The position numbers and the translations under genes are program-made. A model generated the notes under the pieces. That model was given only the letters and a program-made list of their open reading frames with translations, was not told the DNA's origin and ran no database searches. Below are positions 470-59,302 of a stretch of DNA of 64,000 nucleotides, in pieces. Source of the stretch: Escherichia coli. Its GTDB lineage: Bacteria > Pseudomonadota > Gammaproteobacteria > Enterobacterales > Enterobacteriaceae. Numbering within the stretch: position 1 is the stretch's first letter; every line of letters starts with the position of its first letter. The stretch is from the NCBI RefSeq assembly GCF_003334815.1, contig NZ_QOWO01000008.1, one strand, 5' to 3'.

Positions 470-1616
<1,147 letters not shown>

Positions 1617-1621
1617 TTACC

Positions 1622-2233
1622 TCATAACGCGGCGCGTAGGGCTTCGCGAATTAAAGTTTCACTGCTGGCGTCAGGGCGAGCGATTTTGCTCACCATGCGG
1701 CTTGCTTCTTGTGGTTTATAGCCCAGCGCCACCAGCGCGGCAACCGCTTCTTGTTCAGCATCGTCGGTCGCCGGGCTGGCAGGAGACGTGAGTACCAGGT
1801 CGGCGGCTGGCGTAAAGAGATCGCCATGCAAACCTTTAAATCGGTCTTTCATTTCAACAATCAAGCGTTCGGCGGTTTTTTTGCCAATACCCGGCAGTTT
1901 CACCAGTGCCCCCACTTCTTCACGCTCAACGGCATTAACGAACTGCTGCGCTGACATTCCGGAGAGGATCGCCAGCGCCAACTTCGGGCCGACGCCGTTG
2001 GTTTTGATCAACTCTTTGAACAATGTGCGCTCTTGTTTATTGTTAAAACCGTACAGCAGTTGCGCGTCTTCACGCACCACAAAGTGGGTGAAAACGATCG
2101 CTTCCTGACCCGCTTCAGGGAGTTCATAAAAACAGGTCATCGGCATATGCACTTCATAGCCTACGCCGCCCACTTCAATTAACACCAGCGGGGGTTGTTT
2201 TTCAATGATGATGCCTCTGAGTCTGCCTATCAC
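1622..2233 (-). CDS. ruvA: Holliday junction DNA helicase subunit RuvA
   Basis: 203 aa ORF immediately upstream of ruv[14 protein letters not shown]-terminus. Confidence 0.95.
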
Positions 2234-2282
2234 ATGACGCTCCTGCGTAATGAATCAAAGATAATGCTGTATGATAAAAAAA

Positions 2283-2302
2283 TGCTGGATAGATATCCAG
2301 CG
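2283..2302 (-). promoter_or_regulatory. LexA (SOS) box of the ruvAB operon
   Basis: Palindrome tgCTGGatagatatCCAGcg about 50 bp upstream of ruvA start; matches recalled ruvAB SOS box. Confidence 0.6.
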
Positions 2303-2507
2303 AAGGATGAAGAAAACTTGCGAGGTGTCTCGATGAACTGAAAAATGGCACAGTATAATTTATTCTACAGGTTATATTGGAAGCAAATATTTTAATATTA
2401 CATATTCAGTGAAGAAATGCGTAATAAAAATATACATTGCGCCTCCTGAAAAAATAAATTTTTTATGCTATTACGTATATTTGTATCTATTTCAATGGAA
2501 TGACAAC

Positions 2508-3110
2508 GTGAATATTAATTACCCTGCTGAATATGAAATTGGAGATATCGTCTTTACATGTATAGGTGCTGCCTTATTTGGTCAAATATCAGCTGCATCA
2601 AATTGCTGGAGTAATCACGTCGGGATCATTATCGGTCATAACGGTGAAGACTTCCTGGTTGCAGAAAGCCGGGTTCCCCTTTCAACCATCACCACGCTAT
2701 CTCGTTTTATTAAACGTTCGTCTAATCAACGCTATGCTATAAAGCGATTAGACGCTGGGCTGACAGAACGACAAAAACAACGAATTGTTGAACAGGTTCC
2801 CTCCCGGCTACGCAAACTTTACCACACCGGTTTTAAATACGAATCTTCGCGCCAGTTCTGTTCAAAATTTGTTTTTGATATTTATAAAGAAGCGCTATGT
2901 ATTCCGGTGGGTGAAATAGAGACGTTTGGAGAATTGTTAAATAGCAATCCGAATGCAAAACTCACTTTCTGGAAATTCTGGTTCCTGGGTTCTATTCCGT
3001 GGGAGCGTAAAACCGTCACGCCAGCCAGTTTGTGGCATCATCCGGGTTTGGTGTTGATTCATGCGGAGGGAGTGGAAACGCCTCAGCCGGAACTGACCGA
3101 GGCGGTATAA
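2508..3110 (+). CDS. yebB: Uncharacterized protein YebB (200 aa form, GTG start); six-frame ORF extends to 2409
   Basis: Translation [17 protein letters not shown]... matches YebB; AT-rich gene. Confidence 0.75.
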
Positions 3111-3111
3111 C

Positions 3112-3633
3112 TTAACGCAGTCGCCCTCTCGCCAGGTTCAGCCGCGATTCGCTCATCTGCATCGCATTCTGACTAACGTGGCAGTGGGTGATAGCAATCG
3201 CCAGCGCATCGGCGGCATCCGCCTGTGGATTAGCGGGCAGTTTCAGCAAGGTGCGGACCATATGCTGCACCTGGCTTTTTTCGGCACTGCCAATACCTAC
3301 CACCGTTTGCTTTACCTGACGTGCCGCGTATTCAAATACTGGCAACTCCTGATTCACCGCCGCCACAATCGCCACGCCGCGCGCCTGGCCCAGTTTCAGG
3401 GCTGAGTCAGCGTTCTTTGCCATAAAGACTTGTTCAATGGCGAAATAATCAGGCTGGAACTGGGTGATGATTTCCGTCACGCCCGCATAGATGAGTTTCA
3501 GACGAGACGGTAAATCATCCACTTTGGTGCGGATGCATCCGCTACCCAGGTAGGACAGTTGCCTACCTACCTGGCGGATGACGCCGTAGCCGGTCACGCG
3601 CGAACCCGGATCAATGCCGAGAATAATAGCCAT
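3112..3633 (-). CDS. ruvC: Holliday junction resolvase RuvC
   Basis: [19 protein letters not shown]-terminus, 173 aa. Confidence 0.95.
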
Positions 3634-3667
3634 CACGCGTCTCCGTTTTGCTGTTTAGCAGGCCTCA

Positions 3668-4408
3668 TCAGAGAGTCGCTGCGACCTCATCAGAGATTTC
3701 ACCGTTATGGTAAACTTCCTGCACGTCGTCGCAATCTTCCAGCATATCGATCAGACGCATCAGTTTCGGTGCGGTTTCTGCATCCATATCAGCTTTGGTA
3801 GACGGGATCATGGAAACTTCCGCGCTGTCTGCTTTCAGACCTGCCGCTTCCAGAGCGTCGCGCACTTTACCCATTTCTTCCCATGCAGTGTAGACATCAA
3901 TCGCGCCGTCATCATAGGTCACAACGTCTTCAGCACCTGCTTCCAGTGCTGCTTCCATGATGGTGTCTTCATCGCCTTTCTCGAAGGAGATCACGCCTTT
4001 TTTGCTGAACAGATAGGCAACGGAACCATCAGTACCGAGGTTACCGCCACATTTGCTAAATGCATGACGCACTTCAGCAACGGTACGGTTGCGGTTGTCA
4101 GACAGACATTCAATCATGATTGCCGTGCCGCCAGGACCGTAACCTTCGTAGATGATGGTTTCCATGTTTGCATCATCATCACCGCCCACACCACGTGCAA
4201 TTGCGCGGTTCAGTGTGTCACGGGTCATGTTGTTAGACAGTGCTTTATCCACCGCCGCACGCAGACGCGGGTTAGCGTCCGGATCGCCACCGCCCAGCTT
4301 AGCCGCGGTTACCAGCTCACGAATGATTTTAGTGAAGATTTTACCGCGCTTAGCATCCTGCGCAGCTTTACGATGTCTGGTGTTGGCCCATTTACTATGA
4401 CCTGCCAT
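3668..4408 (-). CDS. yebC: YebC/PmpR family transcriptional regulator
   Basis: 246 aa, [23 protein letters not shown] signature. Confidence 0.95.
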
Positions 4409-34731: not shown

Positions 34732-35233
34732 CAAAACACTCAATTACTTAACATAAATGTATAAGTCATACTTTTGTTTTGGGTGTATTTCAATCTGTTA
34801 AAAAGTTTTTCGCTACGCTAGCAAGCAAAAATGAAACAGGAATAATCGAAATGGGATGTTGCGCACAGTCAAAATAACTCACCGTAAATAATCATCTGCT
34901 ATAAATAATCACTTTCATGCAATACCAGATAAGCTATTTTTAAACAGACACTTACCGCACAACAAACTAATTAAATACAAAGAAAGGCAACAATCAACTT
35001 AATGTTAATGAAATGTTTTACATATATTAACCACTTGTTTAATGCGGAGAATCAGTACACTATTTTCTTATAATTACATTTGAAATTATATGATCACCGG
35101 GAGTGATTGATTAATTGTCTTTACTAATAATCAGACTAATATTTACCTGTTTGACCGAGTTGGGATTGCGTCGTTTCTCCATTAGGAGTAAAGCTTTAAT
35201 GTCACCTGAAGTTCACAGAATAAGGAACAGGTT

Positions 35234-57589: not shown

Positions 57590-59302
57590 TTAACCCTGCA
57601 GCAGAGACAGAACCTGCTGCGGTACCTGGTTAGCTTTTGCCAGCACGGAGTTACCTGCCTGCTGAATAATCTGCGCTTTCGACATGTTGGACACTTCGGT
57701 CGCATAGTCGGCGTCCTGAATACGGGACTGCGCTTCGGACAGGTTGGTAGTGGTGTTGTTCAGGTTGGTGACTGCGGAATCCAGACGGTTCTGCACGGCA
57801 CCCAGGGAAGAACGGAATTTGTCTACGGATGCGATAGCATCGTCCAGCGCTTTCAGCGGATCCGTGGTCGCTTCAGATTTACCTGTAGCTTCAGTGGTCA
57901 GAGAGCCGTCAGCCGCTTTATACAGAGCCGCGCCGTCATCATCCAGAATATTGCCGTTAGCAAATTCGTGATAAGTTTCTGTGACAGTCTTGTTGGCCGC
58001 AGTCGTCAGTTCACCCTCAGCACCAATATTTACGGTCGCTCCACCTGTAGTAGCAGTTACTGCACCATCAGCGGCAACGTCATAAGACTGTGCGCCGTTA
58101 GCTACGGTATAAGCCTGACCGGTTAACGCAGTGTTCATATCTTCGGCGGATACCGTCGCGCCCTTAATATCCACATTGTTGCTAACCTGGGTGAAGTCAA
58201 CGGTCATGCCGCTGCCGAAGGTAATCTTCGCATCAACTGCATCATGACCATTCGCACCGTTGAAAATACCGTCCAACGTTGCCGCGGCTGGGCCGCCGGC
58301 CTGGTTTTTCGTCAGGTTACCGTCAGCACCAATGTATAAAGCATCGCCATTAGTATCCGTCAGGGTACCATCGCTGGCAATTTTAACTTCCTGAGCGCTA
58401 CCACCGATGGAGATCTGAGCCGTGTTATCGCCGTTTGCTGCATAGGCTTTCAGAACATCAGCAACTTTAGTTGAGCCCGCAGTACCATCACCATTAGTAA
58501 GTGCGGTTGCGTCAAATGAATAAGACTTGCTGGTTGCGTTGTAGGTATATGCAGTAGAAGCCGCTACGCCTAACCCATTGTTTGTGCCAGCATAACCGCT
58601 AATAGTGCTGCCGCCACTAACGCTAGCCAGCACATCGGTAGCTGTTGCTGCATTAAAGGTAGTAACAGTAGATTTAGTCCAGGTGCTATTGCCACTGACA
58701 ACTGCACTTTGGGAGAAGCCCGCAGCGGTCAGATCTGCTTCAGTGGCTTTTGCATTATCAACAGCGCCTTTACCGTTGACGTTGAAGCTGGTCAGCTTCA
58801 GTGTAGAAGAGTCGATTTTTTTCAGGTCAATCGTGATGGTTTCACCATCATTTGCGCCCACCTGAATTTTCATTGAACCGTCTTTGGACAACACATTCAC
58901 GCCATTGAACTGGGTCTGACCAGATACGCGGTCAATTTCATCAAGACGAGATTTGATTTCGTCCTGGATGGAGTCCAGGTCAGAATCGGAGTTAGTACCG
59001 GTAGTGGCCTGAACCGTCAGTTCACGGATACGCTGTAAGTTGTTGTTGATTTCGGACAGCGCGCCTTCGGTGGTCTGCGCAACGGAAATACCGTCGTTGG
59101 CGTTACGTGCAGCCTGAGTCAGGCCTTTAATGTTAGAAGTAAAACGGTTAGCAATCGCCTGACCCGCGGCGTCATCCTTCGCGCTGTTAATACGCAAGCC
59201 AGAAGACAGACGCTCGATAGAACTCGACAGCGCAGACTGGTTCTTGTTGATATTATTTTGAGTGATCAGCGAGAGGCTGTTGGTATTAATGACTTGTGCC
59301 AT
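57590..59302 (-). CDS. fliC: Flagellin FliC (H-antigen), 570 aa allele with a non-K-12 central domain
   Basis: Conserved N-terminus MAQVINTNSLSLITQNNINKNQSALSSSIERLSSGLRINSAKDDAAGQAIANRF and C-terminus ...QVPQQVLSLLQG; central region differs from the 498 aa K-12 H48 flagellin. Confidence 0.95.
   Translation of the reverse strand: MAQVINTNSLSLITQNNINKNQSALSSSIERLSSGLRINSAKDDAAGQAIANRFTSNIKGLTQAARNANDGISVAQTTEGALSEINNNLQRIRELTVQATTGTNSDSDLDSIQDEIKSRLDEIDRVSGQTQFNGVNVLSKDGSMKIQVGANDGETITIDLKKIDSSTLKLTSFNVNGKGAVDNAKATEADLTAAGFSQSAVVSGNSTWTKSTVTTFNAATATDVLASVSGGSTISGYAGTNNGLGVAASTAYTYNATSKSYSFDATALTNGDGTAGSTKVADVLKAYAANGDNTAQISIGGSAQEVKIASDGTLTDTNGDALYIGADGNLTKNQAGGPAAATLDGIFNGANGHDAVDAKITFGSGMTVDFTQVSNNVDIKGATVSAEDMNTALTGQAYTVANGAQSYDVAADGAVTATTGGATVNIGAEGELTTAANKTVTETYHEFANGNILDDDGAALYKAADGSLTTEATGKSEATTDPLKALDDAIASVDKFRSSLGAVQNRLDSAVTNLNNTTTNLSEAQSRIQDADYATEVSNMSKAQIIQQAGNSVLAKANQVPQQVLSLLQG

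Follow-up and report, generated by a model that had tools for sequence, protein, structure and literature searches.

The AT-rich stretch between ruvA and ruvC of E. coli is very probably not a single object but is built from three layers of differing age, namely the ancestral control region of ruvAB, an old insert that consists of yebB, and a younger filler in which the small gene yobI is located (Table 1). The insert with yobI and yebB as such is an already annotated and known E. coli locus.

The analysed stretch of 64 kb, referred to as the window, is from E. coli, and in its first 34.7 kb only 8 mismatches to MG1655 were found. The IS1 element upstream of flhD is absent from the window, and beyond 34.7 kb the MG1655 coordinates are offset.

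Table 1. Features of the ruvA-ruvC region in the window and the basis on which they were placed
Feature	Position	Strand	Basis and details
ruvA	1622-2233	-	RefSeq annotation mapped onto the window
ruvA leader, ruvAB sigma-70 promoter and LexA (SOS) box	2234-2303	-	Promoter and terminator scan
Lineage-specific AT-rich filler, 190 bp, 28.4% GC	2304-2493		blastn, GC content, strain comparison
yobI, 21 codons	2372-2437	-	RefSeq annotation; NCBIfam NF038179; ATG to TAA at 2437-2372
Predicted yebB promoter, CTGAAA-17-TATTAC	2446-2474	+	Shimada 2014, Table 1; placed by reading the sequence
yebB, GTG start, 200 aa	2508-3110	+	RefSeq annotation; NF008547; comparative start evidence
Tail-to-tail junction of yebB and ruvC	3108-3114		yebB stop 3108-3110, ruvC stop 3112-3114 (-), 1 nt between
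ruvC	3112-3633	-	RefSeq annotation mapped onto the window

Base composition of the region

The initial annotation had described positions 2234-3110 as markedly AT-rich, and this is confirmed by a GC content of 40.0% compared to 50.4% for the mean of the window (z = -2.66, bottom 3.1% of all 877-bp windows). The region is one of five low-GC patches of this kind in the 64 kb. The flanking genes have GC contents of 53.3% (ruvA) and 55.9-56.0% (ruvC). The 274-bp spacer between ruvA and yebB has 31.0%, where the intergenic regions of the window average 43% (sd 6.9), and further AT-rich promoter spacers are found in the window between yecR and ftnA (30.6%) and between torY and cutC (34%). For the yebB coding sequence a GC content of 44.1% was determined (z -2.2, third lowest among 58 genes with 100 aa or more), with a GC3 of 39.8% (z -2.56, second lowest of the 58). 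An overall content of 44% is moderately low, and four further patches of the window are equally AT-rich.

The AT-richness had originally been assigned to both the spacer and the 5' part of yebB. The former holds, but a concentration at the 5' end of the gene does not, as the 5' part has 42% and the 3' part 45% GC; the minimum is located in the spacer (28-31%) and not at the beginning of yebB. In addition, the spacer had been counted as part of a single yebB locus, which has to be corrected: it is a composite of the conserved SOS promoter of ruvAB and the E. coli-specific filler with yobI.

The ruvC-ruvA gap in other Enterobacterales

In Erwinia, Yersinia ruckeri and Xenorhabdus the genes yebC, ruvC, ruvA and ruvB are contiguous, and the distance between ruvC and ruvA is 73, 142 and 129 bp, respectively. 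At the corresponding site these three genera have no yebB, and neither does K. oxytoca, in which a gene for 220 aa is found between ruvC and ruvA. Since the two ruv genes are direct neighbours in the three former genera, yebB represents a derived insert, in line with the earlier view of a gene that interrupts the ruv machinery. In Salmonella the gap contains a gene for 224/230 aa together with yebB, and in further genera spacers of 1.0-1.8 kb (38-43% GC) encode three unrelated families of proteins. When the other genes of the ruvC-ruvA gap were searched against NCBIfam, no match was obtained. The tight junction between yebB and ruvC is found as well in most of the orthologous loci that are linked to ruv. 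Positions 2304-3110 of the window would occupy what in other families of Enterobacterales is a gap of 73-142 bp, reaching from the ruvC stop codon to the LexA box.

The ruvAB control region

The 70 bp adjoining ruvA (37% GC) are conserved with 80-92% identity across genera and show no variation in nine E. coli strains. They contain the ruvAB promoter, with the -35 element TGGATA at 2299-2294 and the -10 element TATCAT at 2276-2271 of the minus strand, and the same promoter (TGGATA-17-TATCAT) is given in Shimada 2014. The LexA palindrome GCTGGATATCTATCCAGC is located at 2301-2284 and is followed by a T-run. Its CTG-N10-CAG core, CTGGATATCTATCCAG at 2300-2285 of the minus strand, overlaps the -35 element. 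The palindrome upstream of ruvA is kept in Erwinia, Yersinia, Xenorhabdus and K. oxytoca, and in the first three of these it is found 5-50 nt after the ruvC stop codon. We interpret this part as the ancestral control region of ruvAB, which would comprise leader, sigma-70 promoter and LexA operator.

With its palindrome and T-run the LexA box also resembles a terminator. A second candidate terminator hairpin is located at 3249-3272. For yebB itself, a role as LexA target has been predicted from an expression compendium. An Rfam scan of positions 1500-3800 yielded nothing credible, the only hit being a chance match to a lncRNA (E 0.29).

The AT-rich filler and yobI

In blastn comparisons with E. 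albertii, Salmonella, Citrobacter, Kluyvera and others, homology ends at approximately 2300-2320 and restarts at approximately 2494. The filler that lies in between is limited to E. coli and its closest clades, is present in a single copy per genome and varies more between E. coli strains than the rest of the region. Comparing E. coli positions 2301-2493 with the longer spacers of other genera by blastn and Smith-Waterman alignment gave nothing above shuffled controls; a lone match in Superficieibacter was a match of A/T-runs and was discounted. The filler contains yobI, the divergent promoters of yobI and yebB predicted in the literature, and the 33 codons (2409-2507) by which the yebB frame can be extended. 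The transcription starts of yebB and yobI are predicted at about 2481 (+) and about 2473 (-), respectively.

The initial annotation mentioned that yobI is annotated near here, and its position is now fixed (Table 1). YobI matches the NCBIfam equivalog NF038179 with 54 bits (cutoff 33 bits), and the ORF is intact and has a start codon. It is also intact in nine E. coli strains, with three amino-acid changes at most. In a cryptic-clade Escherichia the start codon is replaced by ATA, and in another divergent strain the ORF is destroyed. The gene yobI shares 29 nt with the beginning of the putative yebB extension on the opposite strand. YobI has reportedly been detected via epitope tagging by Hemm et al. 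in 2008 and 2010. The 2008 identification of yobI is cited by Goodall 2018, and in TraDIS few transposon insertions are found in yobI.

The filler (190 bp, 28% GC) would be the younger part of the insert. In E. coli it would sit at the place that is taken by a gene for 224-231 aa in Salmonella, E. albertii and Citrobacter, and it would supply the divergent promoters of yobI and yebB as well as the small ORF yobI itself. The latter is apparently young. A search for yobI as remnant of the lost 228-aa gene gave IFFLFTQFVIASY as best protein match, with a value of 0.055 that was obtained with 11 queries against a very small search space and is not significant.

A broader reading of the gap is possible rather than probable, and we put it forward tentatively and for all of its parts taken together. 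The short stretch that separates the ruvC stop codon from the LexA box could be a recurrent site of landing and turnover for small low-GC genes of the Enterobacteriaceae, with at least four unrelated families including yebB in different genera. In E. coli a membrane-protein gene (224-231 aa, retained by Salmonella and E. albertii) could have been replaced by the filler of 190 bp and 28% GC, in which YobI would be born either de novo or as a degenerate stump. The LexA palindrome with its T-run could at the same time act as operator, as -35 element and as intrinsic terminator, ancestrally for ruvC and now for yobI. If this is true, yobI would be a datable and species-restricted case of the birth of a small-protein gene.

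Age and origin of yebB

An old horizontal acquisition of yebB had been suggested, and this fits with its low GC3, with the fast divergence of YebB, whose identity between genera is 74-82% compared to 93-98% for RuvA and RuvC of the same genera, and with homologues at unrelated loci in Providencia, Proteus, Budvicia and C. amalonaticus. According to the layered explanation yebB would be the older part of the insert and would have entered the gap in the ancestor of several genera of Enterobacteriaceae, among them Escherichia, Salmonella, some Citrobacter, Kluyvera and Pseudocitrobacter. After this entry it would mostly have been inherited vertically while evolving fast, and its GC3 has remained low and binding of H-NS is reported for the region, as is typical of anciently acquired and weakly expressed accessory genes.

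Alternatively, yebB could be a native gene that was inherited vertically and never acquired horizontally. Its AT-richness would then be caused by low expression with relaxed codon usage in combination with the AT bias of promoter DNA, and its position at ruv by an intragenomic rearrangement. For such an origin speaks that the locus is present in all complete E. coli genomes (5426/5426), in a single copy per genome, and that it lacks hallmarks of mobile elements: no integrase, tRNA, IS or flanking direct repeats were found at the locus, and the search for phage copies gave no match. Matches assigned to plasmids were Mb-scale non-mobilizable replicons or mislabelled chromosomes and not genuine plasmid copies. 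The YebB family is moreover widespread in Enterobacterales (Providencia, Proteus, Budvicia, Salmonella, Klebsiella), a neighbour-joining tree broadly sets the Morganellaceae apart from the ruv-linked Enterobacteriaceae, and the yecR-ftnA and torY-cutC spacers are equally AT-rich.

However, we consider a native origin unlikely. A GC3 that is second lowest among 58 genes argues against it, and the gap is occupied by unrelated low-GC genes in different genera, therefore suggesting repeated gain and loss. While RuvC identity goes from 95-98% within the Enterobacteriaceae to 85% in other families, that of YebB goes from 74-82% to only 68-74%. In addition, the Enterobacteriaceae hold at least two divergent YebB lineages in the tree, with an A and a B type in Salmonella as well as in C. 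amalonaticus. An old insert therefore remains the preferred explanation for yebB.

Reported H-NS binding

The gene had also been proposed to be bound by H-NS, for which published binding data speak. In the ChAP-seq tables S2/S3 of Higashi 2016 (PMC4720273) the ruvA-yebB intergenic region and ruvC are marked as H-NS-bound, where "bound" stands for binding in at least one of three strains, and an H-NS site in the ruvA-yobI spacer was obtained by genomic SELEX in vitro (Shimada 2014). The gene yebB itself is not among the entries of the tables consulted; as both flanks are called bound, its coding sequence may be occupied by H-NS as well. Scanning for the high-affinity motif TCGATAAATT with up to two mismatches gave one weak match in the region (2330-2339), and 82 matches in the window compared to 67±7 expected.

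The binding data could be taken to mean that the AT-rich spacer is mainly a regulatory or architectural element, i.e., a curved nucleation site of H-NS that tunes the SOS expression of ruvAB and in which yobI and yebB are passengers. The SELEX peaks of the RpoD and RpoS holoenzymes within the spacer and the scarcity of transposon insertions in yobI would agree with this. It is nevertheless quite improbable, as conservation across genera is limited to the 70 bp next to ruvA and the occurrence of the H-NS motif is not above chance. In E. albertii, Salmonella and others the filler is swapped for unrelated DNA while the ruvAB promoter and the LexA box are kept; therefore, the regulation of ruvAB is independent of the filler.

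The start codon of yebB

As described in the initial annotation, the yebB frame is open for 33 codons upstream to a GTG at 2409, which gives 233 instead of 200 aa and includes the sequence YYVYLYLF. It had been concluded that the start is ambiguous; the comparison with relatives singles out position 2508 instead. The homologous position is ATG in Superficieibacter, Citrobacter, Pseudocitrobacter, Kluyvera, Enterobacter and Klebsiella, and GTG 2508 is changed to ATG in E. coli strain TUM1586. About 8-10 nt upstream of this start a GGA remnant of a Shine-Dalgarno sequence is kept in most. The GTG at 2409 on the other hand is GCG in three of nine E. coli strains. The predicted yebB promoter is located within the extension, and its spacer holds an A-run (2450-2455) of strain-variable length, in which indels of -1, +1 and +2 in O157:H7, NU14 and N61 break the frame of the extension. 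In E. albertii, Escherichia sp. E1V33 and others, in-frame stop codons are found 1-15 codons upstream of the start.

Judged from these alignments, YebB starts at GTG 2508, and the start given by RefSeq and EcoCyc is confirmed. The additional 33 codons would be an accidental open frame through the filler and would not be translated as part of YebB. In the Weaver 2019 preprint, the TRAINSPOTTER 2026 supplements and the Mg-starvation small-protein paper neither yebB nor yobI is mentioned.

That the 233-aa ORF from GTG 2409, or a form starting at TTG 2481, represents a genuine isoform of YebB with an extended N-terminus in strains like K-12 is hardly credible. In its favour, the window strain and the clade strain L003 have no stop in this frame over 57 upstream codons, the NCBIfam profile of YebB reaches 4-5 positions beyond the annotated start and one database protein of 269 aa (P0002) exists. 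Against it speak the loss of the upstream GTG, the A-run indels and the promoter inside the extension. In addition, the extension is interrupted by stop codons in a divergent E. coli, in E. albertii and in every other genus, and it overlaps yobI on the opposite strand. In the 233-aa ORF the Pfam domain does not begin before residue 43, and the aligned structure of YiiX sets in at a position that corresponds to residue 10 of the 200-aa YebB. In MG1655 coordinates, GTG 2409, TTG 2481 and GTG 2508 correspond to 1946152, 1946224 and 1946251, and the ATG of yobI to 1946180.

The YebB protein

YebB matches the NCBIfam equivalog NF008547 with 407.6 bits (cutoff 227 bits) and Pfam PF05708 (Peptidase_C92) with an E-value of 2.2e-45, covering 163 of the 166 model positions. 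Residues 10-185 were aligned to the structure of YiiX (PDB 2IF6; E 1.5e-17). All of the 23 aligned homologues share the residues H37, E53, Y105 and C118. His37 and Glu53 precede Cys118, i.e., the protein is circularly permuted, and their counterparts in YiiX are found at the aligned positions of 2IF6. On the grounds of its sequence, YebB is a permuted papain-like protein of the NlpC/P60 superfamily (Peptidase_C92) with a complete Cys118/His37/Glu53 triad and Tyr105. A match to Pfam RecA_dep_nuc at the C-terminus (E 0.31) was dismissed as chance.

The permuted NlpC/P60 family was defined by Xu 2011 (PMC3142127), where also a fatty-acid ligand in the pocket of YiiX was reported and a role as acyl-amidase proposed. 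By analogy to YiiX, the reaction of YebB would most likely be the hydrolysis or transfer of a fatty-acyl amide or thioester bond. Because it starts directly with the catalytic domain and has no N-terminal signal sequence, YebB is probably cytoplasmic. YiiX and YaeF, by contrast, have signal or lipoprotein sequences.

Implications and comparison with known systems

For the annotation of this region it follows that the GTG start of yebB at 2508 is confirmed, that the 233-aa ORF is an artefact and that the position of yobI is fixed. The locus provides a clean small case of an ancient accessory gene that splits the yebC-ruvC/ruvAB cluster, with a stop codon exactly on one side and an SOS operator on the other, and of species-specific AT-rich filler that can host a new small ORF. 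The current understanding of RuvABC or H-NS is unaltered by it.

The yebB gene of the window is b1862 of K-12 (NF008547; Peptidase_C92, formerly DUF830) and occupies the same place in the genome as it does in MG1655. Its product is identical over 200 residues to the database cluster P0001, except that the GTG start is read as V. From b1862 it differs in nothing; the strain of the window is not MG1655 but is near-identical over the region. Likewise, the stress-response small protein YobI (NF038179; b4677) is encoded here as the same 21-aa product at the same annotated position, without a difference in the window strain, and by comparison it is confined to E. coli proper. With its paralogues YiiX (2IF6) and YaeF, YebB has the permuted fold family in common, with His, Glu, Tyr and Cys in register. 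For YiiX a hydrophobic acyl-binding pocket was proposed, and with 79.5 bits YebB stays below the 216-bit cutoff of the YiiX equivalog model, which corresponds to a match at the level of paralogues.

[quoted passage not shown] 2016 (PMC4720273) in its low GC content, its presence in all E. coli and its absence from the syntenic site in other families. In difference to this class, yobI-yebB comprises about 0.8 kb with a single inserted gene and shows no features of an island, and it is a candidate only for silencing by H-NS.

Gene order and identity of the locus

The genes at the locus follow the E. coli order ruvB-ruvA-yobI-yebB-ruvC-yebC-nudB-aspS, and a 2.1-kb query around the region 2234-3110 found a match in all 5426 complete E. 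coli genomes (5426/5426), with at least 80% of the query covered in 5400 of them and less than 80% in 26. The window runs collinear with MG1655, and subtracting 1943743 from an MG1655 coordinate gives the window position; over the first 34.7 kb there are 8 mismatches. The IS1 located upstream of flhD in MG1655 is missing at about 34752-34759, and the fliC region is divergent (57868-58847), followed by a segment that is 97.6% identical. The few mismatches, the absent IS1 and the different fliC region therefore indicate a K-12-like strain, not MG1655 itself. Gene coordinates are those of the RefSeq annotation transferred onto the window. All genes of the region are already annotated and its biology is ordinary; modestly new are the precise place of the insertion, between the ruvC stop and the LexA box, the differing sets of genes in the ruvC-ruvA gap across Enterobacteriaceae, the terminator-like character of the conserved LexA palindrome and the E. 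coli-specific origin of the AT-rich filler carrying yobI.

Features of the ruvA-ruvC interval; L-numbers are orthologous loci of other genomes in their own local coordinates
Feature	Position	Strand	Source or remark
ruvA	1622-2233	-	RefSeq annotation
yobI	2372-2437	-	RefSeq annotation; 54 bits vs 33-bit cutoff on NCBIfam NF038179
yebB	2508-3110	+	RefSeq annotation
ruvC	3112-3633	-	RefSeq annotation
Layer (A): ruvA Shine-Dalgarno, promoter, LexA palindrome	2234 to about 2303
Layer (B), filler: yobI and whole spurious yebB extension	about 2304-2493		28.4% GC
Layer (C): yebB ribosome-binding site and coding sequence	2494-3110
yobI-equivalent positions, MOD1-EC7003 / SCPM-O-B-8794	L003 and L005
Gap family, first group	L004 3006-3692; L023 2368-3054; L007 3102-3797; L028 3100-3774	-
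Gap family, second group	L007 2319-2999(-); L033 4313-4975(+); L006 2905-3591(-); L011 2551-3246(-); L025 3203-3973(-)
Gap family, third group	L023 3083-3937; L010 3084-3908	-
LexA-box hairpin and T-run, Erwinia/Xenorhabdus/Yersinia	L034 4030-4052; L035 4075-4100; L036 4029-4052

yebB is an insert between ruvC and ruvA

The initial annotation had proposed that yebB was inserted between two parts of the ruv machinery, and the sequence comparison bears this out: yebB is an insert between ruvC and ruvA. Erwinia, Yersinia ruckeri and Xenorhabdus share the gene order aspS-nudB-yebC-ruvC-ruvA-ruvB, in which ruvC and ruvA are only 73, 142 and 129 bp apart, respectively. The gap of Klebsiella oxytoca holds an unrelated 220-aa gene and no yebB, that of Salmonella a 224/230-aa gene together with yebB. 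Across genera, the gap contains yebB and members of three further families of uncharacterised proteins, found in E. albertii, Escherichia sp. E1V33, Salmonella, Citrobacter, K. oxytoca, Superficieibacter and Pseudocitrobacter. These families are mutually unrelated, about 220-285 aa long and only 35-71% identical within a family; their spacers have 38-43% GC, and none of the proteins has an NCBIfam match. Two of the three have hydrophobic N-termini.

YebB is 74-82% identical between genera in which RuvA and RuvC are 93-98% identical, and only beyond the family does RuvC identity drop to about 85%. Homologues of 68-74% identity lie at unrelated loci in Proteus, Providencia, Budvicia and C. amalonaticus. 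All E. coli carry the locus, neither flanking repeats nor genuine plasmid or phage copies were found, and a neighbour-joining tree of YebB sets the Morganellaceae broadly apart from the ruv-linked Enterobacteriaceae group; the acquisition of yebB is therefore old. The same observations would also fit a purely intragenomic relocation, by which yebB may have arrived beside ruv. Of the older horizontal acquisition suggested initially, insertion and age thus largely stand, and relocation is an alternative to its horizontal part. In E. coli strain 720632 (NZ_CP025842.1, 290538-293415) yebB is split by an IS1A, and its two pieces are annotated as YebB fragments; yebB is therefore dispensable.

The spacer consists of three layers

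The alignment of the spacer with orthologous loci of other taxa and nine further E. coli/Escherichia strains separates three layers (see table). Layer (A) is 80-92% identical from Salmonella to Kluyvera, invariant among the aligned E. coli strains, and contains the promoter TGGATA-17-TATCAT, also given as ruvAB promoter by Shimada et al. (2014; PMC3946193), and the LexA palindrome GCTGGATATCTATCCAGC. Among the aligned loci, layer (B) had no homologues beyond E. coli and its closest clades. At its position E. albertii, Escherichia sp. E1V33, Salmonella, Citrobacter, Kluyvera and Superficieibacter carry 1.0-1.8 kb of unrelated DNA, with no residual similarity above shuffled controls. The filler is single-copy and varies more within E. 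coli than any other part of the region. At the other end of layer (C) the stop codons of yebB and ruvC are 1 nt apart.

The LexA palindrome, inside which the ruvA -35 element sits, is followed by a run of seven T (2274-2301, minus strand) and was scored as an intrinsic terminator. Because a LexA-box hairpin with T-run also lies 5-50 nt past the ruvC stop in Erwinia, Xenorhabdus and Yersinia, it may originally have terminated transcripts of yebC-ruvC, and may terminate those of yobI in E. coli, besides its role as SOS operator.

yobI is confined to E. coli

The small gene yobI, suspected near yebB in the initial annotation, could be placed. Nine E. coli strains keep its 21-codon ORF intact, with at most three substitutions (Y2C, T10A, L15F). 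The ATG is changed to ATA in the cryptic-clade Escherichia sp. MOD1-EC7003, and a 7-bp deletion and substitutions destroy the ORF in the divergent strain SCPM-O-B-8794; intact yobI was seen only in E. coli proper. All other genera lack yobI because the whole filler is missing. Its variability is close to that of the non-coding DNA around it, so sequence alone gives no clear sign of purifying selection. The few TraDIS insertions in yobI (Goodall 2018) are weak evidence of importance for a target of 66 bp in H-NS/RNAP-bound DNA. In Escherichia sp. E1V33 a 228-aa gene occupies the yobI position, and its N-terminal hydrophobic segment has a weak, non-significant likeness to YobI (E 0.055).

Start codon and expression of yebB

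The yebB frame is indeed open for 33 codons upstream, from GTG 2508 back to GTG 2409, but the start is not ambiguous as had been proposed: the comparative evidence for 2508 is decisive. At the corresponding position Superficieibacter, Citrobacter, Pseudocitrobacter, Kluyvera, Enterobacter and Klebsiella have ATG; Escherichia has GTG, with ATG in at least one E. coli strain (TUM1586). Most compared genera retain a GGA remnant of the Shine-Dalgarno sequence about 8-10 nt upstream, and both the Pfam domain and the structural alignment with YiiX begin just after 2508. Reading upstream from 2508, an in-frame stop is reached after 1-15 codons in E. albertii, Escherichia sp. E1V33, one divergent E. 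coli and most other genera, GTG 2409 is GCG in three E. coli strains, and the A-run 2450-2455 differs in length from the window by -1 in O157:H7 PV15-279, +1 in NU14 and +2 in N61, putting the extension out of frame; as part of YebB it was rejected as spurious. In the part of the literature searched, yebB had neither a ribosome-profiling nor an N-terminal proteomic record.

The predicted yebB promoter (CTGAAA 2446-2451, TATTAC 2469-2474) lies inside the extension, with the A-run in its spacer. With these indels the -35 and -10 elements would stand 16, 18 or 19 bp apart instead of 17, and A-run length could tune yebB expression between lineages. An RpoS-holoenzyme SELEX peak is reported in the ruvA-yebB spacer (PMC5493296). 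In a network inferred from an expression compendium, yebB is among the predicted targets of LexA (PMC2689187), which would fit yebB sharing the ruvAB control region. Since the adjacent stop codons leave no intergenic room, a candidate for terminating yebB transcription is a terminator-like hairpin with T-run, AGGTGCGGACCATATGCTGCACCT GGCTTTTTTC (3249-3282, plus strand), which lies antisense inside the ruvC coding sequence, 140 nt beyond the yebB stop.

Base composition and H-NS binding

The region has 40.0% GC compared to 50.4% for the whole window, 53.3% for ruvA and 55.9-56.0% for ruvC, which places it in the lowest 3.1% of all 877-bp windows of the 64 kb (z = -2.66) and confirms its AT-richness. 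Five patches of the window are comparably AT-rich, this region among them; the other four, as AT-rich or more so, are torY-cutC/micL (13.7-14.9 kb), yecT (18.0-18.9 kb), the DNA upstream of flhD (34.1-35.7 kb) and araF-ftnB (41.3-42.9 kb). The trough is the 274-bp ruvA-yebB spacer (31.0%; window intergenic mean 43%, sd 6.9). A concentration in the 5' part of yebB, also proposed, did not hold (42% versus 45% in the 3' part). Among the 58 window genes of at least 100 aa, yebB has the third lowest GC (44.1%) and second lowest GC3 (39.8%, z -2.56); only yecT (38.9% GC) has a lower GC3 (33.7%).

Published data support the suggestion that the DNA is probably H-NS-bound. Shimada et al. (2014; PMC3946193) place an H-NS site from genomic SELEX between ruvA and yobI, and divergent RpoD promoters between yobI and yebB. 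In Higashi et al. (2016; PMC4720273), the conserved intergenic region 'ruvA-yebB' (diversity 0.027) is marked as H-NS-bound, as is ruvC beyond its 3' tip, according to ChAP-seq calls in at least one of the strains SE15, SE11 and K-12. Occupancy of the yebB coding sequence would follow from these two flanks. An H-NS motif scan found nothing.

YebB is related to YiiX

YebB scores 407.6 bits on the YebB equivalog model (cutoff 227 bits) and matches Pfam Peptidase_C92 with E 2e-45. Its sole solved relative is the paralogue YiiX (PDB 2IF6, E 1.5e-17), for which a fatty acid in the S1 pocket led to the proposal of fatty-acyl amide bond cleavage (Xu et al., 2011; PMC3142127). The N-terminus of YebB enters the catalytic core directly, without signal-peptide-like sequence, and from this and the YiiX proposal we infer that YebB could be a cytoplasmic acyl-amide or thioester hydrolase or transferase. 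His37, Glu53, Tyr105 and Cys118 are in register with the catalytic residues of YiiX and invariant in 23 homologues. As in the YiiX family, His precedes Cys in the sequence of YebB, the order of the circular permutation that defines this family (Xu et al., 2011).
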